Source: Gemmatimonadota bacterium (GTDB lineage Bacteria > Gemmatimonadota > Gemmatimonadetes > Palauibacterales > Palauibacteraceae). Taken from it: a stretch of 29,872 nt of DNA. The position numbers and the translations under genes were made by a program. Shown here one piece after another: positions 4,141 to 22,195 of the stretch (position 1 is the stretch's first letter; every line of letters begins with the position of its first letter). The DNA is taken from positions 1 to 29,872 of the forward strand of contig JBHIAV010000037.1 of the NCBI GenBank assembly GCA_046758745.1, read 5' to 3'. The notes below the pieces were generated by a model, which saw only the letters and a list, made by a program, of their open reading frames with translations, ran no database searches and had not been told where the DNA came from.

Positions 4141-4529
4141 CCTGGGTGCCCAGGCCTCGGTTCCGAACCGCTATTGCGAGATGCAGTGAATCTGGCGGGT
4201 AGGGAACCGAGGCCCTCTCCCCGAAGCCGTCGTTCGCTCACACGGATAGGTAAGGATCCGTCGGTCGGCAGGAAGAAGGATCCGGAGGTCGCCAACACCC
4301 GGTTCGGAATCCCGGCGTGCGGTCCCGGACCACCGTGGCTATCGGCGTCGTCGATCGCGCACCCCGCCGGATGCAGGAAAGCCTTGCCGTGGCGCGCTCC
4401 CGCTGAAACGACAGCCGTCGCCCTGAGTCGACAAGCAGCCGGGGCTGTGGTATCGTTTGTTGGGGCAGGTCACCAGCCCCACCAACGACCCGCGAACGCC
4501 ACACTCGTTTCGGGCACTAGGGGGCGCGA

Positions 4530-5198
4530 ATGCCCGGCTCTCTGCCACCCGAGCTTGCCAGCCTCCTTCATTCGAGCGATCCGGACTCCCGCGAACAGGC
4601 GTGGTCGAGGTTTCTCGCACGGTATAGCGGTCTGCTGCTGCACACGGCACGGAGCCTCGGTGGCTCGTACGACGCGGGCATGGACCGTTATCGATATGTG
4701 ATCGAAGAACTGAGGAGGGAGGATTTCAAACGACTCCGAAAGTTCGCCGCGGGCGGGCGGAGCAGTTTCACCACGTGGCTCGTGGTCGTGAGCCGCCACC
4801 TGTGTCACGATTACCGCCGCGCTCGCTACGGCCGAGATCGTGAATCTGCCGAGGGAACGGACGTTCCGAGCGGGTCCCAGGCCACCCGTCGTCGACTCAT
4901 CGATCTGATTGCGAGCGAGTTGGATCCCTCGACGCTACGAGACCGGACGCTCGCCGATCCTGAGAGGCAACTCAGAGCGGCCGAGCTATCGCAAGCTCTG
5001 GAAGCGGCGCTCAGCCCACTTCCGGAACGTGACCGTCTGCTCCTGAAGCTGCGCTTCGAAGACGACGTTCCGGTTCGGGAGATCTCTCAGCTGATGAGAT
5101 TCCCGACGGTCTTCCACGTCTATCGCCGATTGAAAGCCGTGCTCCAAGACCTCCGAGAACGGATGCAGGAGAAGGGGATCGACGGTTCCCTTCCCTGA
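4530..5198 (+). CDS. ECF-type sigma-70 family RNA polymerase sigma factor
   Basis: Region 2 (AWSRFLARY...SFTTWLVVVSRHLCHDYRR) and region 4 HTH (LPERDRLLLKLRFEDDVPVREISQLM). Directly upstream of an anti-sigma gene. Confidence 0.92.
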   Translation: MPGSLPPELASLLHSSDPDSREQAWSRFLARYSGLLLHTARSLGGSYDAGMDRYRYVIEELRREDFKRLRKFAAGGRSSFTTWLVVVSRHLCHDYRRARYGRDRESAEGTDVPSGSQATRRRLIDLIASELDPSTLRDRTLADPERQLRAAELSQALEAALSPLPERDRLLLKLRFEDDVPVREISQLMRFPTVFHVYRRLKAVLQDLRERMQEKGIDGSLP

Positions 5199-5247
5199 GC
5201 GGGCTGCCGCCGCACGGGCAAAAAAGAGGAACAGGGTGAATAGGGCC

Positions 5248-5280
5248 GCGCAAGAAACTCATCCCCTTTCCGTATTACAT
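5248..5280 (+). promoter_or_regulatory. Putative cognate ECF promoter, copy 1 (GCGCAAGAA-N12-TCCGT-N3-ACAT)
   Basis: The same motif with identical spacing recurs at 8866-8898. Both copies sit just upstream of a gene start. Confidence 0.6.
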
Positions 5281-5329
5281 AACCAGAGGCGTACGCGCCG
5301 ATGACTCTCAGCGAGCGACAGCGACTACG

Positions 5330-5929
5330 ATGAATCGCCCCGACGGCTCCCGGGAGACACACGTGGACAGTGAGGCCATCGCCGCCTACCTCGACGGCGT
5401 GCTCTCGCCCGGTGAGACAGCCTCCGTCGAGGGCCACCTGGCGGACTGTCCCTCCTGCCGGAGCGGCGTGACGGAAGCGGCACGATTGCTCCGCTCACGG
5501 CACCGACGTCGGCGTTGGTTCATCGCGGGTCCGGCGGTTGCAGCGGCCGCGGCAGCCATTCTCATCTTCTCCTCGTCGCCGACCGGTGTGCCGGAGCCGG
5601 CGGACGGAGTCGTGCGTGGCGGAGAGCTGGCCGAATCAGAAGCCGTGCCGAGAATCACCCCGCTCGCGCCTCGGCCCGGCAGCGTAGTCGGTACCGACTC
5701 GATCGTCTTCCTCTGGGAGAGCGTTGGCGGCCGCGTCACGTATCGCGTGACGCTCACCCTCGAGAGCGGCGACGTGCTGTGGACGGAGGATACGTCCGAC
5801 ACGACGATCGCCCTTCCTTCCGGCATCGAGATGGCACCCGATCGAGTCTACTTCTGGTATGTCGATGCTCTGATGGCTGACGCCTCATCGGCGACGACAG
5901 GTGTTCAGGAATTCCGGACGGCTCCGTGA
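5330..5929 (+). CDS. zf-HC2 (ZAS) anti-sigma factor with a TM helix and an extracytoplasmic beta-sandwich domain
   Basis: IAAYLDGVL...EGHLADCPSC (HxxxCxxC), a basic patch, TM helix WFIAGPAVAAAAAAILIF, linker VVRGG and an Fn3-like C-terminus (FLWESV..YRVTL..YFWYVDA). Confidence 0.9.
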   Translation: MNRPDGSRETHVDSEAIAAYLDGVLSPGETASVEGHLADCPSCRSGVTEAARLLRSRHRRRRWFIAGPAVAAAAAAILIFSSSPTGVPEPADGVVRGGELAESEAVPRITPLAPRPGSVVGTDSIVFLWESVGGRVTYRVTLTLESGDVLWTEDTSDTTIALPSGIEMAPDRVYFWYVDALMADASSATTGVQEFRTAP

Positions 5930-8901
5930 GTTCGGCAGCCCACGTTCGGGCAGCCGCGGGTCTTCTGCTGTTCGGGCTTCTCGCGTGTGAGGGGCGGGGC
6001 GCGCCGGAGGACACGCGCACCGGCCAACTTCCATCATCCACTACCAGCGAAGGGCATAGCGCCAGCCTCGATTCTCTGATGGCGGCGGGGGCAGGGGCGT
6101 ACTCCGCCGGCGACTTCGAGATGGCGCGGAAGCTGCTCCACGAAGCCCTTGGAGTCGCCGGCCGCGGCGCCGACAGCACCCAGGTAGCGCGAATCCTCAC
6201 CTCGCTGGGGCTCGCATCGTATCGACTGGGCGATTACGAAGAGGCGCGGCGCCTCGGTGAGGGAGCACTCGAGCTCAAGCTGCGGCTCCACCACCATGAG
6301 ACCCTCTTCCGCTCGTACAATGCGCTCGGACTTCTGGCCTGGAACGAGGGGCGTCTGTTCGACGCATCCGACCACTACGAGAAGGCCTTCGAGGTCGCCG
6401 AGGCGAGACGCGACACGGCCAGCCTGGCGAAAGTCTCCAACAACCTCGGGCTCCTGCTCACGGAACTGGGCGACTTCCCGGAGGCGCGGCGCCGTTTCCT
6501 CGATGGGCTGAACGCCTCTCGGGCGGCGGGCGATGCCGTGGTCGAGGGGCGAGTTCTCAACAATCTGGGCATGCTCGACTACGAAGTGGGCAACCCCCTC
6601 TCGGCGATCGCCTTCGTCCAGCAGGCTCGACCGGTGCTTCGAGCAGCGGGCGACGTCACGGGCGAGCAGAACGCCCTCGGCCAGCTCGGCGTGGCCTATG
6701 CCGCCATCGGCGAGCCGGGGCGCTCGATCGCCTACCTGGACAGTGCGTTGCAGCAGTCCCGCGTCCAGGGACTGCGACAGGAGGAGGCGGGCAACCTGGA
6801 ACTGCTGGGCGAACGGTACCACGGAGCCGGAGACTTCGGACGGGCGCTGGAACTGTACGCCGAGGCGCAGGCGATCAACCGGGAGCTGGGACTCGCGCTC
6901 GAGATGGGGACCGACCTGCGCGCGGAAGCCGAGATCCACGCGGCGCTTGGTAACCTCGGTACCGCAAGGGAACTGGCCGACCGGGCTCTGGAGATTCACC
7001 GGAGAGCCGGCGCCCGGTTCGAGGAACTGCGCGATCTGCTCATGCTTGCCGAGCTCGCGCACGAGGACGGTCGCTCCGAGGAGACGAGCCTCCACCTCGC
7101 TGCGGCGCGACAGCTCGCCGAACGGCTGGAGGCGCCCCGGGCCTGGGCCGGCGTCGCGCTTTCGCGGGCGCGACTGGCCGAGCGGGAGGAAGACGCGCTA
7201 CAGGTCTTACGGGTGCTGGACGCCGCGACCCGGGAGCTCTCAGTGGGTGGGTACGGGACGGCGTGGGAGCTCCATGCGCTGAAGGCGCGGGCTCACGCGC
7301 GTCTCGGCGCCCTGGACTCGGCCGCGGCCGCCGGTAGGCGGGCAATGGCCGCCGTGGAACGTGTGCGGGGGCAATTCGGCTCCGGAGCCCTGCGGACCTC
7401 GTACACGTCAGAAAGGGCCACGGCATACTGGGATCTCGTCGACGTGCTTCTTCTCCTCGGGCTCACCGAGGAGGCATTCGAGGTGGCCGATGCGGCCCGA
7501 GGTCGGGCTCTGCTCGAGCAGCTGGCTGCCTCTCCTTCGGCCGGGCCGGGGAGTGGAGCGACGGTCCGAATGCTCGCCGAGGGAGAGAGACACCTGCTCC
7601 GACAGATCGATTCGCTGTTGGTGTGGATCGACGAGCTCAGCGACACGGCGGGGCCGGACGCCAGGGCCGATCTCGAGGCCGACCTCGAGCGCCTCAACGC
7701 GCAACTCCAACGAGCGAGGGCGGATTACGAGGCGGCACTCGTGCGGGCCGAGGAGCTGGATCCCGTGGGACTGACGTTGGCGGGGGGAAGGCGGCAGAGC
7801 GCGGCGCGAGTGAAGAGCGCTCTCAGGCCGGGCGAGGTGTTGCTGCAATACCTCGTCATGCCGGAGAAGACCGTGACGTTCGTCGTCACGCGGGACGCGG
7901 TGAGGGTGTTCGAGACGCGGATCACACGCGCGAACCTGGCCAGCCGGGTTCGGGTCGCGCGCGATCTGTTGGCCCGGCGTTCGCCCCACACACAGCGGGG
8001 GTACGCGGCGCTCGAAGCGTTGTACGAAACCCTGATCGCGCCCGCGGCCAGGGCCGGGAGGCTCGACAGTGCGGTTCGGTTGATCATCGTGCCGCAGGGA
8101 GAGCTGAACTATCTCCCGTTCGCGGCGCTGCGCGACGTGCGGGAAGGTATCTATCTGGCCGAACGATACGTGGTTACGAATTTGCCGTCGGCGGCGGCGC
8201 TTCCTGTCCTGCGGGAAAGAGAGAAGGCGGGCACGAACGTGGCGACGGCTGGAGCGGCCGCGTTCGCGCCATACCCGGAGGAGCTTCCGGCCACCTCCCA
8301 GGAGGTTTCGGTCTTCCGACAGCAGTTGTCGGGCGCGTCCGTGTACCTGAGCGGGCGCGCGACGGAGTCGAACTTTCGTCGCTCGCTCGCTGAAGGCGCC
8401 ATCGTCCACGCGGCCACCCACGGCATTCTGAACGCCCGGAGTCCGATGTTCTCCAGGATCGAGCTCGCCCGCGGCTCGGGCGATCGTTCCTCCGACGACG
8501 GCCGCTTCGAGGTTCACGAGCTGATGAGGGTTTCTGTGACCAGCCCGCTCGTATTCCTCTCCGGCTGCGAGACCGGGGTGGGCGCGGCGTGGTCCACGGC
8601 CTTCGAGAGAGGAGAGGATTACGCGACGCTCGCCCAGGCCTTCCTGTACGCCGGGGCCAGCAACGTCATCGCGACCCTGTGGCGCGTAGAGGACGAGGGG
8701 GCTGCCGCCTTCGCCGAGAGCTTCTACCGCCACCTTAGATCCCGGTCGGCCGCGGAGTCGCTGGCAGCGGCTCAGCGCGAGATGATCGCACATCCACGCT
8801 ACGGCGAGCCGTACTACTGGGCGCCCTACCGCTTGAGCGGAACCGGAGAGCTGGTCGTCTCATCTGCGCAAGAATCCGGACCGATGTCCGTGAGACATTG
8901 A
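5926..8901 (+). CDS. TPR-CHAT domain caspase-like cysteine protease, probable lipoprotein
   Basis: GTGA overlap with the anti-sigma stop, lipobox GLLAC and many TPRs (YNALGLL, SNNLGLL, LNNLGML). CHAT motifs are LIIVPQGELNYLPFAAL, catalytic His in HAATHG, Cys in LSGCETG, VIATLWRV and PYYWAPY. Confidence 0.95.
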   Translation: MSSAAHVRAAAGLLLFGLLACEGRGAPEDTRTGQLPSSTTSEGHSASLDSLMAAGAGAYSAGDFEMARKLLHEALGVAGRGADSTQVARILTSLGLASYRLGDYEEARRLGEGALELKLRLHHHETLFRSYNALGLLAWNEGRLFDASDHYEKAFEVAEARRDTASLAKVSNNLGLLLTELGDFPEARRRFLDGLNASRAAGDAVVEGRVLNNLGMLDYEVGNPLSAIAFVQQARPVLRAAGDVTGEQNALGQLGVAYAAIGEPGRSIAYLDSALQQSRVQGLRQEEAGNLELLGERYHGAGDFGRALELYAEAQAINRELGLALEMGTDLRAEAEIHAALGNLGTARELADRALEIHRRAGARFEELRDLLMLAELAHEDGRSEETSLHLAAARQLAERLEAPRAWAGVALSRARLAEREEDALQVLRVLDAATRELSVGGYGTAWELHALKARAHARLGALDSAAAAGRRAMAAVERVRGQFGSGALRTSYTSERATAYWDLVDVLLLLGLTEEAFEVADAARGRALLEQLAASPSAGPGSGATVRMLAEGERHLLRQIDSLLVWIDELSDTAGPDARADLEADLERLNAQLQRARADYEAALVRAEELDPVGLTLAGGRRQSAARVKSALRPGEVLLQYLVMPEKTVTFVVTRDAVRVFETRITRANLASRVRVARDLLARRSPHTQRGYAALEALYETLIAPAARAGRLDSAVRLIIVPQGELNYLPFAALRDVREGIYLAERYVVTNLPSAAALPVLREREKAGTNVATAGAAAFAPYPEELPATSQEVSVFRQQLSGASVYLSGRATESNFRRSLAEGAIVHAATHGILNARSPMFSRIELARGSGDRSSDDGRFEVHELMRVSVTSPLVFLSGCETGVGAAWSTAFERGEDYATLAQAFLYAGASNVIATLWRVEDEGAAAFAESFYRHLRSRSAAESLAAAQREMIAHPRYGEPYYWAPYRLSGTGELVVSSAQESGPMSVRH
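8866..8898 (+). promoter_or_regulatory. Putative cognate ECF promoter, copy 2, embedded in the last codons of the CHAT gene
   Basis: gcgcaagaa-tccggaccgatg-tccgt-gag-acat, matching 5248-5280 and ending 37 nt before ATG 8936. Confidence 0.6.
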
Positions 8902-8935
8902 TAAGAAGTATCGCTTTCGACTGCGGAGAGACTCA

Positions 8936-9931
8936 ATGAAGGTTAAGCACGCCGCCCGTCATCTATCGTTCGGAACCCTGCTGGCAGCGGTCGCATGGGT
9001 TGCGGCGTGCTCCGAGCCGGGGCCGACCTCGCCCGAGTCACCTTCGATTCTCGCCGCCAAGGGCGGGAACGGAGGGGGAGACGGGCCCACCGTGGACGCG
9101 ACCGACCCCACGAGCGCACCTCAGGGAGCGACTCTCCCCGTGGGGGTGTTCGGATCCGGCTTCGATCCCGGGTCCGTGGTGGACTTCCTTCTTGACGGCA
9201 AGAAGACCACGAAGGTCGTGACGAACTCCACCTCGTTCGTCGGTGCCGGTGAGCTGATCGCCGACATCACGATCGCCGCCGACGCGCCCCTCGCCTCGTA
9301 CGACGTCCGGGTCACGACCTCGCGAAAGAAGAAGGGGATCGGCACCGAGCTGTTCAAGATCGTCGGCACGACCTTCGACCTGCCGATCTCTTCGGGAAGT
9401 GACGGGCTGTTCTCCGACGGCGGCGGGCCATTCATCGATGAGTTCGACCCGGACCAGATGGCGCTGAGCGTGGACTGCCCGCGGAGGTTCGTGCTGGTGC
9501 GTCCAGCCGACTGGCCCGTCGTCTCCGGCGACGAGGTCCACTGCAGCGGTCGGGACGGCTTCTCGCGGCTCGACCTCAACGACCTGGGCAGCCGGCCCTG
9601 CGCCGACCCCGGCGGATGTCCGATCGGTACGACGGGTCACGACCCCTCGAGCCATTTCGGCCCGGACCTCAACTACTACTTCCGGGTGAGCACCGGTCCT
9701 GGCAAGGGGAATTTCGCTTCCTACAACGTGGTCTGGACCGATGCCCTGTTCACGATTGACCAGACCGAGAACGGGGATCCCAGCGGCACCGCCTGCCGCT
9801 GGCACGTCTGGGCGAACACGGCCGAGTTCTGGGAGAGGACGGGGGGCACGGACACTATCGTGCAGGTGGACGAGAAACGGGCGATGGCTCTGGACGTCAT
9901 CGTGGAGCGCCAGGACCTGAACTGTCCTTGA
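8936..9931 (+). CDS. Hypothetical lipoprotein with an IPT/TIG-like Ig domain and a six-Cys C-terminal domain
   Basis: GGAGAG SD, lipobox VAAC, KGGNGGG linker and an IPT-like segment (DPTSAPQG..VFGSGF..YDVRV). The C-terminal domain is paralogous to 10331-11104. Confidence 0.85.
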   Translation: MKVKHAARHLSFGTLLAAVAWVAACSEPGPTSPESPSILAAKGGNGGGDGPTVDATDPTSAPQGATLPVGVFGSGFDPGSVVDFLLDGKKTTKVVTNSTSFVGAGELIADITIAADAPLASYDVRVTTSRKKKGIGTELFKIVGTTFDLPISSGSDGLFSDGGGPFIDEFDPDQMALSVDCPRRFVLVRPADWPVVSGDEVHCSGRDGFSRLDLNDLGSRPCADPGGCPIGTTGHDPSSHFGPDLNYYFRVSTGPGKGNFASYNVVWTDALFTIDQTENGDPSGTACRWHVWANTAEFWERTGGTDTIVQVDEKRAMALDVIVERQDLNCP

Positions 9932-9950
9932 TGGGACGCAACGACGGAGC
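9371..9950 (+). repeat. Dispersed direct repeat, copy A (domain duplication)
   Basis: Colinear with 10520-11121. Includes a 54-nt identical block (9784-9837 = 10954-11007) and the shared sequence gcaacgacggagc after the stop codon. Confidence 0.92.
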
Positions 9951-10004
9951 AGCCGGCCGCGAGGGGCCGGCAACATCGTGATGCACGCGTAAGGACACAA
10001 GAAC

Positions 10005-10056
10005 AAGAAAAAGCCGCCGGCTGGCGGATCTTCGTGGGAAACACCAGCCGGCGGCT
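10005..10056 (-). terminator. Intrinsic terminator
   Basis: Perfect 13-bp inverted repeat agccgccggctgg (10012-10024) / ccagccggcggct (10044-10056), followed by a T-tract on the minus strand. Confidence 0.8.
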
Positions 10057-10097
10057 ACCGAGACACGAAACCCGGAAGGGGCTCCGTGCATGGTAGC
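10005..10097 (-). ncRNA. Putative ~90-nt cis-antisense small RNA with SymR-like architecture
   Basis: Has its own promoter (TTGCCG-N17-TACATT). The 5' stem pairs GCUACC with GGUAGC and CACGGAGCCC with GGGUUUCGUG, followed by a 15-bp terminator stem and UUUUCUU. It covers the SD and ATG of the + strand ORF at 10090. Confidence 0.65.
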
Positions 10098-10344
10098 TAA
10101 CAATGTACTAGTTGATTTTTCGGCCGGCAATGGCCCGCCTGCATCACGACGGTCGGTCGGCGCCGGCCTCCCTTCGACGCCCCACATCCCACCGTCTTCC
10201 GCGACTTCAGCACGAGGACCGCTCTCGGGAGCCGGTGGAGCAACTCGGGGCGATGGCCCGGGCCCGGCGCGGCCTTCCGCGCCGCGTCACCGCCGACCCG
10301 ACCGGTCGGCTTACCCGAAGGAGGTGGCTCATGAGTTCGGATAG
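10090..10344 (+). CDS. Possible leader ORF (MVANNVLVDFSAG...) overlapping the start of the next gene
   Basis: GGAAGGGG precedes ATG 10090 and is the target region of the antisense RNA. The low-complexity product has no recognisable domain. Confidence 0.3.
   Translation: MVANNVLVDFSAGNGPPASRRSVGAGLPSTPHIPPSSATSARGPLSGAGGATRGDGPGPARPSAPRHRRPDRSAYPKEVAHEFG
10102..10130 (-). promoter_or_regulatory. sigma70-type promoter for the antisense RNA
   Basis: TTGCCG (10130-10125), a 17-nt spacer and TACATT (10107-10102) in an AT-rich patch. The predicted start coincides with the first base of the RNA stem. Confidence 0.6.
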
Positions 10345-11104
10345 GAGACATCCGTGTGCACGCCGGCCGACGTATCGCGGCCTGTGCGGCTTGCTCACCG
10401 TAGCCGTGGTGGCGTGGGCCTGCGGTTGCACCGACGTTCCCACGGCGACCGACGCGAGCCCGCCGGGCCCCGAACTCGCAAAGAAAGGGAAGAAGCCGCC
10501 CCCGTCGGTCCCTCAGGCCACCTTCGACCTGCCAGCGGAAACGGGAAGTGCCGGCCTGTTCTCCTTCGACGACGGCGGCGGGCCATTCGTCGATGCGTTC
10601 GACCCGGACCAGATGGCGCTGATCGTGGACTGCCCGCGGAGGTTCGTGCTGGTGCGTCCAGCAACCGCATGGCCCGTCGTGTCCGGCGACGAGGTCCACT
10701 GCAGCAGCAAAGGCGGTGGGTTCTCGCGGCTCGACCTCAACGACCTGGGCAGCCGGCCCTGCTCCGACCCCCTCGGATGCCCGATTGGTACGACGGGTCA
10801 CACTAGTGACAGTGGTCCTGGCTTCAGCAAGGACATGAACTACTACTTCACGGTGCGTGTGCCCAAGCCCAAAGGCAAAGGGACCACGACGGGAGCGAGC
10901 TACAACGTGGTCTGGATCGATACCAAGTTCACGATCGACCAGGCCGATTCCAACGGCACCGCCTGCCGCTGGCACGTCTGGGCGAACACGGCCGAGTTCT
11001 GGGAGAGAACGGGGGACATCGACAGTACCCGCAGGGTGGACGGGGATCAGACGATGGCGCTGGACGTCATCGTGGAGCGCCAGGACCTGAACTGTCCTGT
11101 GTAG
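10331..11104 (+). CDS. Hypothetical lipoprotein, paralogue of 8936-9931 lacking the IPT-like domain
   Basis: Strong SD AAGGAGGT before ATG 10331, hydrophobic signal ending WACGC, AKKGKK linker and the same six-Cys domain (DCPRRF, HCS, RPC, GCP, ACRW, LNCP). Confidence 0.85.
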   Translation: MSSDRRHPCARRPTYRGLCGLLTVAVVAWACGCTDVPTATDASPPGPELAKKGKKPPPSVPQATFDLPAETGSAGLFSFDDGGGPFVDAFDPDQMALIVDCPRRFVLVRPATAWPVVSGDEVHCSSKGGGFSRLDLNDLGSRPCSDPLGCPIGTTGHTSDSGPGFSKDMNYYFTVRVPKPKGKGTTTGASYNVVWIDTKFTIDQADSNGTACRWHVWANTAEFWERTGDIDSTRRVDGDQTMALDVIVERQDLNCPV

Positions 11105-11121
11105 GGAGGCAACGACGGAGC
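10520..11121 (+). repeat. Dispersed direct repeat, copy B
   Basis: Colinear with 9371-9950. Confidence 0.92.
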
Positions 11122-11201
11122 CCTAGATCCGCACCAGGGATTCGACGTCTGCACAGGCTGACGTGGGCGCATTGCCCGCCCTGCTCTTGAGGTCGAAAGC
11201 C

Positions 11202-12263
11202 ATGTCCGCATTTCATAGCTGGCCGATTCCCCTCCGCTTTTCCAGCCTTGTGCCTGCTGCGATCACGGCGGTGCTGGTCGCCTGTGGGGGTGAGGGAGTT
11301 CAACCGGCCGGGCCCAGCGGGCCTCCGCCCGGGCCCAGCCCAGGTCCCTCAATCGGCTCGATCTTCGTCAAGAGCTCCACGACCGGCGTGGACCTCGATC
11401 GGGACGGCTACACGGTTACCTTGGACGGAGACCAGAGCCAGAGCATGGGAGTGAACATCACGGTGGTGTTCCCGAGCGTGGCTACCGGCGAGCACAGCCT
11501 GGAGCTCTCTGGCGTAAGGAACAACTGCACGGTGAGCGGCGACAATCCCCGCACGGTCACCCTCCTGGCAGATAGCACCACGCAGACGACCTTCGATGTC
11601 AGCTGCTCTCTTCGCACCGTCGCCGCGGTTTCTGTCAGCCCCGACCCGGCCAGGGTCTTCCCGAACGCCGTAATTCGCTTGACCGCGACTCCGTTTGCCG
11701 CCGATGGCGACACGATTACCGGAGCAACCTTCACCTGGCAGTCGTCAGACCCGGCGATCGTGACGGTGGATGACGCCGGCAATGTGAGAGGCATCGCTCA
11801 GGGAGAGACGACGGTCACGGCCACAAGCGGGGCAAAGAGCGGAACAGCTGCAGTGGGAGTAAACCCCGTTCTTTCCGATAACGTTCGAGTTTCCCGGGAG
11901 CTGAGTGCCGTGCGCCCCCACCAGTTCGACCCGTACATCGTGGCCGATGGACAGGGCCGGCTGTTCGTCGCCTGGAGAGACGCAGATTTTGCTGGTGGCG
12001 CATGGCTCGTCGCTTTCGGTCGCTCGCTCGATGGGGGCAGGAGCTGGTCCGCGAGCACCGTAATGGATTTTGCCGACCCTGGCCCGTCGGATGGAGGAGA
12101 TACGTGGTCGGCGAACGTGCGGGTTACCACGCGGGAAACTTCCGCGGACAATAAAGTGAGCACCAAGCTGGGGCTGGCGGTGGATCAGGCCGGTACGGCA
12201 TACCTGGTTTGGACGGATTATCGGAGCGGAGACGCCGACATTTACTCCGCGCACATTCCATAG
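11202..12263 (+). CDS. Lipoprotein with an Ig-like domain, a Big_2 domain and a partial BNR/Asp-box (sialidase-like) propeller
   Basis: GAGGT SD and lipobox LVAC. Ig-like module TTGVDLDRDGYTV..NCTV..FDVSC, Big_2 motif TWQSSDPAIVTVD.GNVRG and Asp-boxes SLDGGRSW and SDGGDTW. Confidence 0.82.
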   Translation: MSAFHSWPIPLRFSSLVPAAITAVLVACGGEGVQPAGPSGPPPGPSPGPSIGSIFVKSSTTGVDLDRDGYTVTLDGDQSQSMGVNITVVFPSVATGEHSLELSGVRNNCTVSGDNPRTVTLLADSTTQTTFDVSCSLRTVAAVSVSPDPARVFPNAVIRLTATPFAADGDTITGATFTWQSSDPAIVTVDDAGNVRGIAQGETTVTATSGAKSGTAAVGVNPVLSDNVRVSRELSAVRPHQFDPYIVADGQGRLFVAWRDADFAGGAWLVAFGRSLDGGRSWSASTVMDFADPGPSDGGDTWSANVRVTTRETSADNKVSTKLGLAVDQAGTAYLVWTDYRSGDADIYSAHIP

Positions 12264-12365
12264 AACGGCACTCCTCCTGTGGACGGATTGGCGGGCCGGG
12301 GAGCAGCACGCTAGTTTTGCTCACACTCCCCAACGGCCAGGCTCCATGACGGTGGAGGGCGCGCC

Positions 12366-13475
12366 ATGACCAGACTCCTGTCCAGATCAGCGAGCATCCT
12401 CGCCGCAGCATTGCTCGCCGGCCCCATCTGGCTCGGCTGTACAGATCAGACCGGCGAGCCGACCGCGCCCGCCGAGCCGCAGCTGAGCCTCTCCATCCCG
12501 ATCGATCAGGACGTGTTCGCGGCGGCGATCGCCGCTCAGGAGCGCCGAACCGAGCATCTGCTGAGCGTGCCGGGCGTGGTGGGGACCGCCGTAGGGCTCT
12601 CCGGCAGCGGCCGGCCCGCGGTCAAGGTGTACGTGGAGACGGCGGACCTGGCCGGGCTTCCCCGGAAGATCGACGGCGTCCCCGTCGTGGTCGAGGTGAC
12701 CGGGGAGATCTTCGCGCTGCAGGAGGCGAAGAGGTGTGAGAATCCGCCCAACTGCAAGGGTGGAAACGGCGGTGGTGGCGGTGCGGACGACCCGCCCGTG
12801 GACCGGACGGCGAGGTTCGATCGGCCCGTGCCGATCGGAGTGTCGACCGGTCATCCGGATATCACGGCCGGTACGATCGGGGCTCGCGTTATCAAGGGCG
12901 CAAATGTCTATGCCCTGAGCAACAACCACGTCTATGCGAAATCAAACACAGCTTCGATCGGCGATGCGGTGATCCAGCCGGGCACCTTCGATGGCGGAAG
13001 CTCACCGGCCGACGACATCGGTACCCTTTCCGACTTCGAGCCGATCAACTTCTCGGGAGGCAACAACGTGATCGACGCGGCGATCGCGGCCTCGTCACCA
13101 GCCTTGCTCGGCAACGCCACTCCCTCCGATGGCTACGGAACGCCGAGATCGACCACGAAAGTGGCCAGCATCAACCTGCGGGTGATGAAGTACGGTCGGA
13201 CGACCGGACAGACCAAAGGCCGGATCACCGGCATCAATGCCACGGTCAACGTGTTCTACGGCTCGCCCGGTGTCGCGAGATTCGTGAATCAGATCGTCAT
13301 CGGTGGCGGCGGCTTCAGTGCAGGCGGCGATTCGGGGTCCCTCATCGTCGTGCAGAAGGGGGAGGACCAGGGGAAGCCCGTCGGCCTGCTGTTCGCCGGC
13401 AGCTCGAGTGTGACGATCGCGAACCCGATCGACGCGGTCCTGACGCGGTTCGGCGTGACGATCGACGGCTTGTAG
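12366..13475 (+). CDS. Secreted (lipoprotein) trypsin-like serine protease, Nal1-like, with an N-terminal propeptide-like domain
   Basis: GGAGG SD and lipobox WLGC. Catalytic triad motifs LSNNHV, IDAAI and GDSGS, plus GTIGARV, KYGRTTG and VGLLFAG. Confidence 0.9.
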   Translation: MTRLLSRSASILAAALLAGPIWLGCTDQTGEPTAPAEPQLSLSIPIDQDVFAAAIAAQERRTEHLLSVPGVVGTAVGLSGSGRPAVKVYVETADLAGLPRKIDGVPVVVEVTGEIFALQEAKRCENPPNCKGGNGGGGGADDPPVDRTARFDRPVPIGVSTGHPDITAGTIGARVIKGANVYALSNNHVYAKSNTASIGDAVIQPGTFDGGSSPADDIGTLSDFEPINFSGGNNVIDAAIAASSPALLGNATPSDGYGTPRSTTKVASINLRVMKYGRTTGQTKGRITGINATVNVFYGSPGVARFVNQIVIGGGGFSAGGDSGSLIVVQKGEDQGKPVGLLFAGSSSVTIANPIDAVLTRFGVTIDGL

Positions 13476-13487
13476 GCCGAGTTTTCC

Positions 13488-13811
13488 GTGTGGAAGGTGG
13501 GTGCGATCGTACTGTGCATCGCCGCGTGTGCAAAGCCCACGGTGGACCGTGAGCCGGCCGACCGAGAGGACACGGCGGTGACCGAACAGAGCATCGAGGC
13601 GGCGCAGGGACGGCTGACCGAGCGCGTGATGGCGCTTCCCGGTGTGGTGGGCACCGCCATCGGGGAGTGCGCCGGGGCTCCGTGCATCAAGGTCCTGGTA
13701 GCGGAGCTCACGGCGGATCTCGGTGCCGCGATCCCGGCGGAGTTCGAAGGCTACAAGGTGGAGGTCCAGGAGACGGGAGAGATTCGCGCGCTGGACGAGG
13801 AAGCGCGGTAG
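13488..13811 (+). CDS. Small lipoprotein homologous to the propeptide-like domain of the adjacent protease (candidate inhibitor or chaperone)
   Basis: Lipobox IAAC. AAQGRLTERVMALPGVVGTAIG..IKVLV..TGEIRAL aligns with AAQERRTEHLLSVPGVVGTAVG..VKVYV..TGEIFAL in the protease. Confidence 0.85.
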   Translation: MWKVGAIVLCIAACAKPTVDREPADREDTAVTEQSIEAAQGRLTERVMALPGVVGTAIGECAGAPCIKVLVAELTADLGAAIPAEFEGYKVEVQETGEIRALDEEAR

Positions 13812-17909: not shown

Positions 17910-18682
17910 CCGTACTGCAAGAGCTGGTCGAGGGGCTGGCCCGCGGGCGGCTGCGGGTCGTCGACCTCACGCAGCCGCTCGGGCCGGACACCCCGGTGAT
18001 CGGGCTGCCGCCGATCTTCGCCTCCTCGCCCGGTGTCACGCTGGAGGTGATCTCGCGGTACGACGACAGGGGACCCGCGTGGTACTGGAACACGCTACGC
18101 CTCGGCGAGCACACCGGGACGCACTTCGACGCCCCCGTGCACTGGATCACGGGGAAGGACCTGCCGGACAACGCCTGCGACACGATCCCCGCGGAGCGAT
18201 TCATCGGTCCGGCGTGCGTGATCGACCTGGTGGAGGAGGTGGAGCGGGATCCGGACTATCTGCTGACCGGCGATCGCGTCCTCGACTGGGAGTCCGAGCA
18301 CGGGCGGATTCCGGGCGGCGCCTGGGTGCTGCTGCACACCGGGTGGAGTGAGCGCCGGGAGCCCGAGCGCTTCCTCAACGTGGCCGAGGATGGGCCGCAC
18401 AGCCCGGGTCTCCATCCATCCGCCTCCGAGCTGCTCGCGCACGAGCGCGAAGTGCTCGGCGTGGGGGTGGAGACGGTCGGCACCGATGCGGGTCAGGCGG
18501 GCGGCTTCGACCCCCCGTTCCCAAACCACTCGATCATGCACGGTGCCGGGAGGTTCGGGCTGGCCAGCCTGCGCAACCTCACCGGCTTCCGCCGACCGGC
18601 GCCGCTCAAGATCGTGGGGGGGAGCGGAAGTCCGGTCCGCGTCCTCGCGCTCGTTCCGGCTGGCGAGGACGACGCGCGCTGA
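17906..18682 (+). CDS. Cyclase-family metal-dependent amidohydrolase (kynurenine formamidase / isatin hydrolase-like); C-terminus possibly damaged
   Basis: VVDLTQPL, YWNTLRLGEHTGTHFDAPVH (ExHxGTHxDAPxH), GVETVGTDAGQA and PLKIVGGSGSPVR. ATGA overlap with the beta gene. Confidence 0.9.
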   Translation: MTVLQELVEGLARGRLRVVDLTQPLGPDTPVIGLPPIFASSPGVTLEVISRYDDRGPAWYWNTLRLGEHTGTHFDAPVHWITGKDLPDNACDTIPAERFIGPACVIDLVEEVERDPDYLLTGDRVLDWESEHGRIPGGAWVLLHTGWSERREPERFLNVAEDGPHSPGLHPSASELLAHEREVLGVGVETVGTDAGQAGGFDPPFPNHSIMHGAGRFGLASLRNLTGFRRPAPLKIVGGSGSPVRVLALVPAGEDDAR

Positions 18683-18751
18683 CGGACAGAGGCCGTTCTC
18701 GGCAGGCCGCTGCCCGGGCGGGCGCCGGGGCAGCGGCCACGCGCAGCCTGA

Positions 18752-20095
18752 TCACACGCCCGCCATGACACCCAGGAGATCCGTCAGCACCCACCAAACG
18801 CCCACGGCCAGGACGGCTCCCGGTACGGCGTAGCGCATCCAGTAGTACAGCCAGAGCGGAAACGGCTCTCCTCCCCCGGCGGCCAGCTCCCGGAGCGCCT
18901 CCGCCCGCCCGATCACCCAGACGATCGTGACCACGGCCACCAGCGCGCCGAGCGTCTGCATTCCCGAGCCGAAGGTGAGGTCCCACGCAAAGAAGACGTT
19001 CATGTTCAGCGACGGGGGGAGGGAGAGCAGGAAGACCGCGGAGGCCATCCACCACACGGCGGCCCGTCGGCCCAGCCGCGTATTGTCGGTGAGCCCGGCC
19101 ACCAGCACCTCGAAGGCGGCGACGTCGGAGAGGTAGGCCGCGCCGAGGAGCGCCGCGAAGAAAAGAAAGCCGAAGAGCCAGCCGGCGGGAATCTCCCGGA
19201 ACACGGCGGGCAGCGTCGAGAAGAGCAGTCCCGGGCCGCTGCTCGCCTCGTGACCGAGCGCGAAGACCGCCGGGATGATGGCGAGCCCCGCCAGCAGCCC
19301 GGCCGCCGTGTCGCCGAACGCCGTCCATCCCGCGCTGCGCCGGAGATCGTCCCGATCTCCGAGGTAGGAGCCGTACACCACCATGAACGTGCCACCCAAC
19401 GAGAGCGAGAAGATGGCCTGTCCCATGGCGGCCACCATCACCCTGGGGGTCAGGTCGCCCGGATCGAAGCGCAGGAGGTACCAGCGAATCCCCTCCGCCG
19501 CCCCGGGGAGCGTCACGGATCGCACCACGAGGACGACCAGCGCGGCGAACAGCGCGGGCGTGATGAACCGGCTCACCCTCTCGATCCCGCGACGCAAGCC
19601 GCGCAGCAGCACGGCCGCGCAGGCGAGGATGACCAGCCCGGTGGCCAGCGCCTGGAGGGCGAACGACCGGAGGTCGAAGCCGGAGGCGGGCGGCAGGATG
19701 GCGGAGGCGGCGAGGGTGCGGCCCTTTCCGAGCGCGAGCTGCCCGACGGCGTGGTACGCTACCCAGCCGATGACGCTCGTATAGTAGGCGGTCGCTGCCG
19801 CCACCACGAAGAAGAAGAACCACCCGATGCTCCGGCCCAGGGGAAGCCCGGCCGCCGCGAAGGCGCCCACCGGGCCGCGGCGCGTGTGGCGGCCGAGGGC
19901 CCACTCGGCCATGAGGGCCGGCACGCCTACGAACACGACGACCGCGACGTAGAAGGTCACGAAGGCCAGGCCGCCGAACTTGCCGACCATGTACGGGAAC
20001 CTCCACACGTTCCCGAGCCCCACCGCCACGCCGATCATGGTCATGGCCAGGCCGAAGCGGGACCCGGAGAAGGTCTCGCGACCGGACCGGATCAC
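18752..20095 (-). CDS. Sodium-dependent transporter, NSS/SNF family
   Basis: RETF..SRFG, GVAVGLGNVWRFPY, AMGQAIFSLSLG and GPGLLF, with many TM helices. Confidence 0.95.
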   Translation of the reverse strand: MIRSGRETFSGSRFGLAMTMIGVAVGLGNVWRFPYMVGKFGGLAFVTFYVAVVVFVGVPALMAEWALGRHTRRGPVGAFAAAGLPLGRSIGWFFFFVVAAATAYYTSVIGWVAYHAVGQLALGKGRTLAASAILPPASGFDLRSFALQALATGLVILACAAVLLRGLRRGIERVSRFITPALFAALVVLVVRSVTLPGAAEGIRWYLLRFDPGDLTPRVMVAAMGQAIFSLSLGGTFMVVYGSYLGDRDDLRRSAGWTAFGDTAAGLLAGLAIIPAVFALGHEASSGPGLLFSTLPAVFREIPAGWLFGFLFFAALLGAAYLSDVAAFEVLVAGLTDNTRLGRRAAVWWMASAVFLLSLPPSLNMNVFFAWDLTFGSGMQTLGALVAVVTIVWVIGRAEALRELAAGGGEPFPLWLYYWMRYAVPGAVLAVGVWWVLTDLLGVMAGV

Positions 20096-20116
20096 CGGGC
20101 CACGCGAATGGGAGTT

Positions 20117-21352
20117 CTACTCGCGGAAGGCCTCGGCCAGGGCGTCGAGGGCCGCATCGACATCGCCGAGGGTCGAATAGAAGTGCGGGGCAAGTCGAAT
20201 GGCGGGGCCGCGCGCGGAGGCGATGATGCCCCGCCGCCTGAGCCGCCTCTCGATCTCGTGCGAGTCGACGCCGATCCCGGGCGGTATGAGGAAGGCGGTC
20301 GATGCGGTCCGCCGATCCACATCCTCGGTCCCGAGCAGCTCCAAGCCGCGCGCCCGACCGCCGTCGATGAGCCGCCGGGCGAGGGCCGCGTGCCACTCTC
20401 GGATGCGCTCCGGGCCCACCTCGCGAATGATCCGCACCCCGGCCCGGCAGACGTACGCGTTGATGAGCGGCGGCGTGCCGGTGTCGAAGCGGCGCGCCTC
20501 GCCTGGCCAGTCCAGCTCGGATGTCCCGAAGGCGTACGGATCGACGCGCCCGAACCAGCCGGTCACCGTCGGATACAGCTCGGCGATGAGCGCCTCCCGC
20601 ACGTAGAGGAAGGCGAGCCCCGGGATGCCCATCAGGAACTTGAGGCAGCCGGAGGCGAGAAAGTCCACCTCCAGCGATTTTACGTCGACCGGACGTGTGC
20701 CGAGCGTCTGATACGCGTCCACGAAGACGAGCGCGCCTCGCTCGTGCGCCATCCGAGCGATGGCCCGGATGTCCTGGACGAAGCCCGTCTGGTAGTACCC
20801 GTGGCAGGCCGACACGATGAGCGTATCGCCGTCGATCGCCCCGTCGTAGTCCTGCGGATGGAGCACCCCGTCGTGCACGGGGACATAGCGCACCCGCGCG
20901 CCTCGGGCCTGCTGCGCCAGCCACACGTGCGAGACGGTGGGAAACTCGGCGCCGGAGATCACCACCCCGCTCCGGCCGCTCGTGAAGTCGAGGGCGCTGG
21001 CCAGGCCGCTCGTCGCCACCGAGACCGAGGTGGACACGGCCACCTCCTCGGGCCGCGCTCCGATGAGCGAGGCGAAGTCGGCCCGTGCCCCTTCGACCTC
21101 TTCGATCCATGCATCCCAGTCCATCCCGGCGCGGTCCCAGGAGTCGAGATATTCGAGGGCCGCAGATCGAGTACGCTCCGTCTGCGGCGCCTGCGAGCAG
21201 TTGTTCATCGGGATCGCCCGCCGGAGGAGCGGGATCTCTCGCCGCCACGCCTCCAGGTCGTAGCCGGGGACCGGGGGTCGAGCGCCGCTCACGCCCGCGG
21301 GCCGCGCCCGCTCATCGCTCACGTCTGGGCCCCGTCCTCGCTCCTCGCTCAC
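20117..21352 (-). CDS. Aminotransferase class V PLP-dependent enzyme (kynureninase / cysteine desulfurase-like)
   Basis: MNNCSQAP, EFPTV, FVDAYQTLG, ASGCLKFLMG (PLP Lys), RRFDTGTP and IRLAPHFY. Three in-frame GTG starts (21352, 21322, 21292). Confidence 0.92.
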   Translation of the reverse strand: MSEERGRGPDVSDERARPAGVSGARPPVPGYDLEAWRREIPLLRRAIPMNNCSQAPQTERTRSAALEYLDSWDRAGMDWDAWIEEVEGARADFASLIGARPEEVAVSTSVSVATSGLASALDFTSGRSGVVISGAEFPTVSHVWLAQQARGARVRYVPVHDGVLHPQDYDGAIDGDTLIVSACHGYYQTGFVQDIRAIARMAHERGALVFVDAYQTLGTRPVDVKSLEVDFLASGCLKFLMGIPGLAFLYVREALIAELYPTVTGWFGRVDPYAFGTSELDWPGEARRFDTGTPPLINAYVCRAGVRIIREVGPERIREWHAALARRLIDGGRARGLELLGTEDVDRRTASTAFLIPPGIGVDSHEIERRLRRRGIIASARGPAIRLAPHFYSTLGDVDAALDALAEAFRE

Positions 21353-21415
21353 GCCCGGGTGCCGCGGCCGCTCATCGGTGACGCCAGCCCATGTCCTCGC
21401 CCGTCGCTCACGCCG
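21286..21415. repeat. Degenerate ~30-bp tandem repeats at the junction of the cupin and PLP-enzyme genes
   Basis: cgctcacg at 21286, 21316, 21346 and 21405, with cggtgacg at 21376 (periods 30, 30, 30, 29). Alternate units are more alike. Confidence 0.8.
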
Positions 21416-21899
21416 GGGCGCCCGGCTCGACCGTCGGGGTGAAGCGGGACGAGGGAACCGGAGCTTCCGCCGCGCGATCGTACGCGATGATGTTCTCCCA
21501 TTCGCTCGCGTCCGAGCGCGCCACCACCGCCACGACCGGTTCCGTATCGCTCATGTTGAAGACCTCATGCGGCACGCCGGGCTCGATGTAGATGAAATCG
21601 CCGGGCCCGTTCTCGACGACCTCCCGGCAGCCCGGGCCGTACTCGTGGCGCACCCTGCCCTCGAGGATGTACAGCATGACCTCGAAGTTCAGGTGAATGT
21701 GCGCCCGCGCGACGCCACCGGGAGGAATGGTCGCGACGTTCATGGAGAGCTCGCGGGCGTCCACGTTCTTCGCCGATAGCCCGGCCCGATAGAGGATCCC
21801 GTTCCACCCGCGGACCGTCTTGTTCGCTCGCAGGACATGGATACCGGCTCCGTGCTCGACGACGCTCCGAAGGTCCACCGTTTCGCCCGATCCGTCCAT
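21408..21899 (-). CDS. Cupin domain protein
   Basis: GGAGG SD before ATG 21899. Motif 1 PPGGVARAHIHLNFEVMLYILEG and motif 2 GDFIYIEPGVPHEVFN. Confidence 0.92.
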   Translation of the reverse strand: MDGSGETVDLRSVVEHGAGIHVLRANKTVRGWNGILYRAGLSAKNVDARELSMNVATIPPGGVARAHIHLNFEVMLYILEGRVRHEYGPGCREVVENGPGDFIYIEPGVPHEVFNMSDTEPVVAVVARSDASEWENIIAYDRAAEAPVPSSRFTPTVEPGAPA

Positions 21900-22195
21900 T
21901 TGGTCCTCCCACCGTGCATGGTACAAGAGGGGTGCAACCTGCCCCGTGCGAGCCATCACTGGCAAGCGGGATCGGCCCCGCTCCGGTGCTGCCTGATCGA
22001 TCTATAGGGGCCTTCGGAATGACCTCCGACCTCCTCCCCGGGTTGGCTCCCGGCGACACGAGTACAGGATCTATCGAGAATATGCGGAGCCGCGCGCTCC
22101 TCGCCTCGTCATCGCCTGCCTATGGGTGGCGAGTGACGTCGACAACGCCCTGCATTTCAAGCGCTGGCTCACCGACGAGAAGGCCGAGCCGCCGC

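Follow-up and report, generated by a model that had tools for sequence, protein, structure and literature searches.

A separately encoded lipoprotein TPR-CHAT protease in a conserved four-gene sigma factor module of Gemmatimonadota, a candidate trans-envelope switch

The stretch of DNA analysed here (the window; 29,872 nucleotides of contig JBHIAV010000037.1 from the Gemmatimonadota assembly GCA_046758745.1, G+C approximately 66%) contains at positions 4530-13811 a cluster in which every plausible gene lies on the + strand. The cluster encodes a sigma factor of the extracytoplasmic function (ECF) type, an anti-sigma factor and an exported TPR-CHAT caspase-fold protease, followed by five lipoproteins, an inventory which agrees in content, strand and coordinates with a preliminary description of the sequence. 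The features of the module itself are as follows.

4530-5198, + strand: ECF-type sigma factor, 222 aa (TIGR02937 sigma70-ECF)
5250-5273, + strand: P1, promoter-like motif GCAAGAA-N13-CCGT, 80 nt upstream of the anti-sigma start (k-mer enumeration)
5330-5929, + strand: class I (zf-HC2, PF13490) single-pass anti-sigma factor, 199 aa, whose outer domain (approximately 115-199) is Fn3/Ig-like
5926-8901, + strand: lipoprotein TPR-CHAT caspase-fold protease, 991 aa, with lipobox Cys21, TPR 41-540, CHAT approximately 626-975 and dyad H832/C881
8868-8891, + strand: P2, second exact copy of the motif, in the final codons of CHAT, 68 nt upstream of the fourth gene (motif match)
8936-9931, + strand: fourth module gene, a lipoprotein with a Gly-rich tether, an IPT/TIG-like N-domain (52-143) and a variable beta-rich head (145-325) (synteny and AlphaFold2 (AF2) model)

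The TPR-CHAT protein matched the CHAT family PF12770 with an E-value of 1.1e-57 (196.1 bits against a gathering cut-off of 24) and also matched TPR families. Its gene is coupled to that of the anti-sigma factor through a GTGA overlap, in which the CHAT start codon GTG (5926-5928) lies over the anti-sigma stop codon TGA (5927-5929), and the overlap noted in the preliminary description is real. The motif LSGCETG is present and its cysteine, C881, was invariant in an alignment of CHAT homologues (A1), with the catalytic histidine placed at H832 in the motif T-H-G. H832 was retained in 22/22 members of the window's own subfamily, defined by CHAT identity of at least 40%, lipoprotein N-termini and an IPT-type fourth gene, and the His/Cys dyad previously described as intact is so. 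By eye, a lipobox-like sequence, L/V/I-x-A/G-C, was recognised in CHAT, in each of the five downstream proteins and at the N-termini of homologues. At the CHAT N-terminus, proteins of the close family carry a lipobox and distant members show an SPI-like signal, a pattern that favours the exported location suggested earlier.

An AF2 model of the CHAT protein (pLDDT 81, pTM 0.72) consisted of a signal helix, a disordered tether (19-42), approximately 25 TPR-like helices (41-540), a pair of long helices and, at 626-975, a caspase-fold domain. The top Foldseek matches of this model were human separase (E 1.2e-14), the anti-sigma/TPR-CHAT protein DdvA of Myxococcus xanthus (8rw5, E 1.9e-14; 8rot, E 3.2e-13) and Csx29 of type III-E CRISPR systems (approximately 1e-14). 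With VIA-align the best matches were Csx29 chains (Z 30-32.5 over 517-591 residues, root-mean-square deviation (rmsd) 5.8-11.2), and the separase protease domain aligned with Z 28 and an rmsd of 3.0-3.1 over 309-319 residues. A phmmer search of PDB sequences with the single CHAT protein recovered TPR proteins only, reaching neither DdvA nor Csx29, and a search for homologous loci with the same single protein returned only four weak loci.

The sigma factor matched TIGR02937 over residues 24-212 (E 1.6e-19, 70.1 bits, cut-off 42.9); matches to the Pfam region 2 and region 4 families both fell under the Pfam cut-offs, and a comparison with PDB found fragments of FliA and SigF only. The anti-sigma gene starts 131 nt downstream of the sigma gene, and its product matched zf-HC2 (PF13490) with an E-value of 9.6e-11. 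Inspection by eye indicated a single Ala-rich hydrophobic membrane stretch followed by approximately 115 outer residues, and the protein thus combines the zinc-binding pattern H-x3-C-x2-C with one membrane helix, as is typical of DdvA-type anti-sigma factors. An alignment of 18 anti-sigma sequences from both of the CHAT subfamilies described below was used as a profile (A2). Its invariant positions are H36, C40, C43, Arg96, Pro114, two Ala residues within the helix and a group of aromatic and Gly residues in the outer beta-domain, and Arg96, approximately 12 residues past the membrane helix, is the sole invariant residue of an otherwise variable linker. The A2 profile matched the N-terminus of DdvA (8rot_B, E 4.7e-6; 8rlz, E 6.9e-5) and gave weak Fn3 matches for the outer domain. 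Searched against 1.84 billion cluster representatives, it matched 6064 proteins at E 1e-10, of which 814 remained at E 1e-30. Among the best 150 matches, 144 were of 179-247 aa, the size of the split form, and the remaining six were giant proteins of 1932-4489 aa with 10-32 tandem copies of the outer domain (P0060, P0061, P0074, P0101, P0126 and P0159), so the outer domain is a widespread, unnamed Ig/Fn3-like repeat.

For the fourth protein, the AF2 model (pLDDT 87) comprised a disordered Gly-rich tether, an Ig-like domain at 52-143 and a beta-rich head at 145-325. Foldseek matched it to IPT/TIG domains and to Bacteroides auxiliary nutrient-binding and surface glycan-binding protein (SGBP) lipoproteins with low whole-chain TM-scores; these matches were driven by the Ig-like domain, and the head had no clear structural match of its own and no Pfam family. 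The consensus of the N-domain ends in a basic K-K-G-I-G stretch (strand 133-143) just ahead of the variable head, and heads found elsewhere in the window's subfamily include a PQQ propeller and HAF/DUF3466 repeats. This first of the five lipoproteins looks more like a modular sensor than a cargo protein.

CHAT homologues of 46-58% identity were present in 41 related genomes, often several per genome, and a second copy of the module lies on another contig of the window's own genome. Gene order was compared by tblastn at 21 loci, of which 15 with CHAT identity of at least 46% are termed close loci (14 of them distinct, because L028 and L029 are identical). The sigma, anti-sigma and CHAT genes occurred in the same order and on the same strand in 15/15 close loci, with sigma homologues of 43-59% identity always at the same position. 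This arrangement is far beyond chance, and the conserved triad on which the preliminary description had staked its interpretation does exist. The N-terminal approximately 160 aa of the fourth protein were kept directly 3' of CHAT in 13/15 close loci, the contig ending in the other two, and the remaining four lipoprotein genes were not conserved; the unit is therefore a tetrad and the rest are local additions. The array of five cargo lipoproteins proposed earlier consequently does not hold as a conserved unit, since only its first member belongs to the module.

The A2 and A1 profiles were also run over a sample of 301 genomes of the phylum. A2 matched in 196/301 genomes at E 1e-8, with many matches covering the zinc-finger part only, and A1 in 77/301 at E 1e-40; module copies are undercounted in this sample because only two candidates per genome were scored. 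None of the conclusions depends on three genomes that are flagged as unpublished. Among the best 44 anti-sigma matches in new genomes, 36 had a CHAT gene no more than 600 bp downstream on the same strand and two more had one within 3.6 kb, the other six lying at contig edges or being without a listed CHAT match. Twenty wider loci were examined for the partner genes; having been chosen for closeness, they provide no independent test of anti-sigma/CHAT adjacency. A sigma gene was found by tblastn in 17 of them and by Pfam in one more, and the fourth-gene N-domain lay 3' of CHAT in 8/20. At two loci from another class of the phylum (L066 and L067) the anti-sigma-like and CHAT genes were convergent, and sigma was not detected with this query. 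Homologues were labelled 'hypothetical protein' and assigned to Gemmatimonadota, Gemmatimonadales and Longimicrobiales metagenome-assembled genomes.

A second subfamily, with CHAT domains approximately 29-36% identical, includes loci L041-L044, L047, L051, L053, L056, L058-L061 and L065. Its members keep the catalytic Cys, His828 and mostly His864, and the gene following CHAT encodes a Big_5 Ig-like domain and then RCC1, Kelch or PD40 propellers or Big_2. At three of these loci (L059-L061) the anti-sigma factor and TPR-CHAT are fused in a single open reading frame (ORF) of 1426, 1373 and 1338 aa, each with a sigma gene upstream, and the alignment of the fused N-termini with the window anti-sigma factor extends from the zinc motif over the helix and the Arg to the beta-domain.

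The preliminary description had CHAT acting directly on the anti-sigma factor, and a complex of CHAT 103-975 with anti-sigma 84-199 was modelled in three runs together with three controls. The scores were 0.74, 0.73 and 0.74, as against 0.00 for the best control, and the runs shared at least 88% of their contacts, with a partner pLDDT of at least 76. The corresponding score mark was reached by 116/157 solved complexes and 2/215 mismatched pairs, counts which are only rough because the alignments were custom-made. The interface list placed the anti-sigma beta-domain (137-152 and 175-192) with CHAT helices 667-698 and TPR 304-346, and also placed anti-sigma residues 95-98, the Arg stretch, alongside CHAT 831-833 and 880-881, the dyad. 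Most of the low-error contacts were domain-to-domain, between anti-sigma 141-149, 175 and 192 and CHAT 669-698. The modelling thus supports binding of the anti-sigma outer domain to CHAT. Success through a memorised structure seems unlikely, though possible, because DdvA as described in the available part of PMC11506125 has no counterpart of the beta-domain.

The spacer between the sigma and anti-sigma genes ranged from 29 to 215 nt and was approximately 80-215 nt in 13/14 loci, which is unusual for such pairs. Two-block k-mer enumeration in these spacers gave CGCA/GCAA...CGT in 9/13, refined to GCA[AC]N-N14-16-CCGT and present in the window as GCAAGAA-N13-CCGT. A motif of the P1 type was found 55-113 nt upstream of the anti-sigma start in 10/14 loci (background 0.012 hits/100 nt), and one of the P2 type, between 80 nt before and 120 nt after the end of CHAT, in 7/14 loci (background 0.024/200 nt); five of these seven, the window's included, lie 25-33 nt ahead of the CHAT stop. 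Elsewhere in these loci there were 51 matches in 429,486 nt. The strict motif occurs exactly twice in the window (5250 and 8868), a count that is not significant, 22/100 shuffles giving at least two, and the weight of the evidence therefore rests on the conserved positions. In appearance the motif resembles an ECF-type -35/-10 pair, and the module's own sigma factor may be what reads it. Across the genome there were 7 matches to the strict motif and 2 to the reversed control; the known sites account for three of the 7, and the other four, outside the two modules, gave no clear regulon, two or three of them lying inside ORFs. One exact copy, at G000:C25 approximately 37740-37763 (L070), is apparently intergenic, approximately 200 nt 5' of an ORF for a 127-aa membrane protein, and may be an extra target. 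Relaxed patterns found no motif 5' of the other four lipoprotein genes in the window, a lone site with two mismatches at 9997-10020 being unconvincing. The earlier proposal that the sigma factor induces secreted cargo is accordingly favoured for the first lipoprotein gene, which is immediately preceded by a motif of the anti-sigma type, but gains nothing for the remaining four.

The other features of the region are listed below.

4428-4456, + strand: sigma-70-like promoter candidate TCGACA-17-TATCGT with TG, 5' of the sigma gene (consensus scan, 9/12 positions, weak)
10331-11104, + strand: lipoprotein copying only the head of the fourth gene (72% identity to residues 146-331 of the fourth protein)
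11163-12263, + strand: lipoprotein with a Big_2 Ig-like domain (PF02368, E 7.5e-10) and a weak BNR-like C-terminus
12366-13475, + strand: lipoprotein trypsin-fold (GDSGS) serine protease with an N-terminal pro-region-like domain (PF25819 Nal1_C, E 1.5e-7; motifs by eye)
13488-13811, + strand: small lipoprotein, 107 aa, copying the N-terminal domain of the serine protease (40% identity over approximately 100 residues, E 1e-14)

The head-only lipoprotein most likely starts at 10331 (257 aa, as P0005) rather than at the ORF start at 10112, and stand-alone head homologues of 232-257 aa occur elsewhere. Among the loci compared, neither it nor the small lipoprotein had a listed match outside the window. 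The Big_2 protein used as a query matched only L045, upstream of a distant CHAT, and 0/14 of the other close loci, and a homologue of the serine protease lay near the module in 1/14 of these (L033, divergent from sigma). The 107-aa lipoprotein starts 12 nt after the serine protease gene, and may be a free pro-domain or an inhibitor paired with that protease. No convincing intrinsic terminators were found in the + strand gaps between genes. The module is flanked on one side by radical-SAM, methyltransferase and outer membrane protein-like genes and on the other by genes for a thiamine pyrophosphate enzyme, a cyclase, a transporter, an aminotransferase and pilin-like proteins, all unrelated to it. 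An A-over-T skew of 0.378 on the + strand at 19-20 kb corresponds to an SNF-family transporter gene on the minus strand (18752-20095), and a long + strand ORF opposite this gene (19250-21442) looks like an antisense artefact. A 30-nt tandem repeat (3.3 copies, 72% matches) lies at 21286-21385, near the start of the aminotransferase gene.

The closest described system is DdvS/DdvA of M. xanthus, in which an ECF sigma factor is paired with a transmembrane zinc-binding anti-sigma (ZAS) factor carrying a periplasmic TPR-CHAT region (PMC11506125, PMC6061681; both available in part). As in the window, the ECF sigma factor adjoins a zf-HC2 single-pass anti-sigma factor, the TPR-CHAT fold is periplasmic, of the separase/craspase type and equipped with a His-Cys dyad, and the working idea is that CHAT acts as the site-1 protease ahead of RseP (PMC11506125). 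Unlike DdvA, the window protease is a separate, lipid-anchored protein translationally coupled to its partner, two ORFs being joined by the GTGA overlap; the window anti-sigma factor has an Fn3-like outer domain of its own, none being described for DdvA in the available part of that paper; and the unit includes a fourth conserved lipoprotein with a variable head. DdvA-type proteins are described as arrow-shaped dimers in which either active site faces the linker of the other subunit. The three relatives that are fused as in DdvA come from the subfamily without the catalytic His. Fused forms have been reported from Myxococcota and one Comamonas, in a survey that covered fused forms only (PMC11506125, in part), whereas the hosts of the window system are labelled Gemmatimonadota. 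The preliminary description had envisaged a CRISPR-independent, trans-envelope TPR-CHAT/anti-sigma system; the triad was indeed found, but the principle is already published as the fused DdvA/DdvS (PMC11506125, in part), and novelty therefore lies in the split form and not in the principle.

Other comparisons were more distant. Type III-E craspase consists of Cas7-11 with the TPR-CHAT protein Csx29, Csx30 and CASP-sigma, and there too a CHAT protease controls a sigma-factor inhibitor (PMC10028731). The window protein shares the TPR-CHAT fold of Csx29 but is no member of the Csx29 NCBIfam model NF041237 (20.9 bits, cut-off 300). Craspase acts in the cytoplasm upon activation by RNA, whereas the window protein is exported and its inhibitor is a membrane ZAS factor and not Csx30. 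Scans of the window found no cas genes, Cas7-11 (gRAMP) or Csx30, repeats being searched in 18000-22000 only, with no window-wide search for CRISPR arrays. An actinobacterial ECF54 context includes a sigma factor, a carboxypeptidase-regulatory-like protein, a subtilase and a TPR-CHAT protein (supplement of PMC7826278, in part, citing Huang et al. 2015). It resembles the window in associating an ECF sigma factor with TPR-CHAT, an Ig-like beta-sandwich protein and a secreted serine protease, and differs in phylum and in gene order (CHAT at +3 or -2); from the partial passage we read ECF54 as possibly lacking an anti-sigma factor. At one paralogous module (L037:10845-14844) genes for an S8 subtilase and a Ser/Thr protein kinase come after the fourth gene, an echo of the ECF54 subtilase. 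The available main text of the ECF classification (PMC7826278) mentions neither CHAT, TPR, caspase nor Gemmatimonadetes, and the part of its supplement covered names CHAT for ECF54 only.

In FecA/FecR/FecI signalling and the RseA/DegS/RseP pathway, the recurring elements are an outer receptor whose signalling domain is conserved and whose ligand part varies, a single-pass anti-sigma factor, site-1 and then site-2 cleavage, and an ECF sigma factor. The window system would follow the same logic, and an M50 protease is present in the genome. It differs in that the candidate receptor is an IPT-like lipoprotein and not a TonB-dependent transducer and in that the candidate site-1 protease, unlike DegS, Prc and CtpA, is an operon-encoded caspase-fold cysteine protease.

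Taken together, these data are consistent with a four-protein trans-envelope ECF sigma switch in which CHAT cuts the anti-sigma factor, an interpretation to which we would give an even chance. At rest the zf-HC2 anti-sigma factor would keep sigma at the inner membrane while its Fn3-like outer domain docks on the CHAT domain and TPR of the lipid-anchored periplasmic protease. A signal would probably reach CHAT via the fourth protein, through its IPT-like docking domain and variable, putatively ligand-binding head. CHAT, using H832/C881, would then make the site-1 cut in the juxtamembrane linker of the anti-sigma factor, most likely at or beside Arg96, after which an RseP-type site-2 protease and cytoplasmic proteases would liberate sigma; the genome holds a Peptidase_M50 (RseP-type) gene (E 1.9e-66). 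Free sigma would transcribe from GCAAGAA-N13-CCGT before the anti-sigma/CHAT genes and before the fourth gene, perhaps reading through into the four downstream lipoprotein genes. The genes and their order, the conserved dyad, the export signals, the motif positions and the fused relatives are observed, and the anti-sigma/CHAT contact is a model prediction; that CHAT cleaves and where, that the fourth protein is a sensor, that sigma recognises the motif, and the regulon are inferred. The preliminary description also cast the TPRs as sensors of an outside cue, a role that would be hypothetical.

Several results weigh against this scheme. The second subfamily, all three fused forms included, has Y, L, S, R, V, F or N at the position of the canonical His in 14/14 members, yet gene order and the anti-sigma domain are retained and the anti-sigma Arg is kept in 7/7 of these loci with an aligned anti-sigma factor. 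What the family has in common may thus be binding and not cleavage, and Arg96 may serve for contact and not be the scissile site. The complex score is the model's own confidence, and the interface list gives no residue-to-residue pairing at the dyad. For DdvA, autoproteolysis was not observed, and the dyad mutants H862A and C907A behaved like wild type in the conditions tested (PMC11506125, in part). As to transcription, the motif was derived from the P1 regions, which leaves only P2 as an independent test; the sigma gene precedes P1, unlike in classic autoregulated ECF operons, where it is downstream; and neither two-block k-mer enumeration nor an AAC...CGT scan found a motif shared by the regions upstream of the sigma genes. 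The His-less subfamily and the DdvA dyad mutants would fit if TPR-CHAT were a non-cleaving partner of the anti-sigma factor, a co-anti-sigma factor or steric shield like RseB or the bulky domain proposed for DdvA, that hides the anti-sigma factor from another site-1 protease or from RseP and is released by the signal, the dyad serving another substrate or none. The predominance of domain-to-domain pairs among the low-error contacts fits such a shield, as does the proposal in the DdvA paper that TPR-CHAT sterically hinders RseP (PMC11506125, in part). Against it, the strict dyad in 22/22 of the window's subfamily argues for catalysis there, and the dyad and anti-sigma 95-98 both appear in the interface list, so that we regard the shield as rather doubtful for the window system while giving it real weight.

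A protease that is active could also have a different substrate. Clan CD proteases often cut after basic residues, and the basic K-K-G-I-G stretch just before the variable head of the fourth protein offers a place at which CHAT might cut behind the IPT-like domain to free or mature the head, with sigma and anti-sigma only controlling expression; other exported lipoproteins might be cut likewise. Linkage to CHAT is no looser for the fourth gene (13/15 loci) than for the anti-sigma gene, and the next gene encodes a free copy of the head. The stretch lies, however, within a predicted beta-strand of a confident domain and is hence a poor protease site, and the fused anti-sigma-CHAT forms and the predicted anti-sigma/CHAT interface would be left unexplained; we consider this substrate unlikely. 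Less likely still is an antiviral or envelope-damage sensor with a defence or stress regulon elsewhere, the neighbouring lipoproteins being incidental. DdvA/DdvS controls a CBASS-CRISPR island, and defence genes accompany no more than a subset of DdvA-like pairs (PMC11506125, in part). Several paralogous modules per genome, as observed here, would suit such a role. A defence scan of 15 window proteins, however, gave no defence family, only generic TPR, radical-SAM and methyltransferase similarity, and with the Pfam scans it revealed no adjacent defence island (CBASS, CRISPR-Cas); the strict motif has only the four genome sites outside the two modules described above, and it does precede the fourth gene.

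Extending the cleavage scheme to the family as a whole, a possible though tentative reading is of modular surface signalling, in which receptor lipoproteins share an IPT or Big_5 docking domain, carry exchangeable heads (beta-propellers, HAF repeats, novel folds) and gate a periplasmic caspase-fold protease that makes a site-1 cut at the conserved Arg. Each genome would then hold several orthogonal channels, and one subfamily would be a His-less pseudo-enzyme, sometimes fused to the anti-sigma factor.

A literature search, with most subscription journals outside its reach, found no description of the split lipoprotein form. The step that is unproven in DdvA-type systems is the action of CHAT as site-1 protease, and the split form would make it testable simply: protease and anti-sigma factor are separate proteins, their interface is predicted, and there are candidates for the scissile Arg and for the receptor, so that binding assays and cleavage assays of wild type against C881A are easy to set up. 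Active and His-less regulators of the caspase fold would form a natural pair for comparison. The family is large, with 814 clusters at E 1e-30 and several module copies per genome, and the module may be a major unrecognised input route to ECF sigma factors in Gemmatimonadota and related bacteria.

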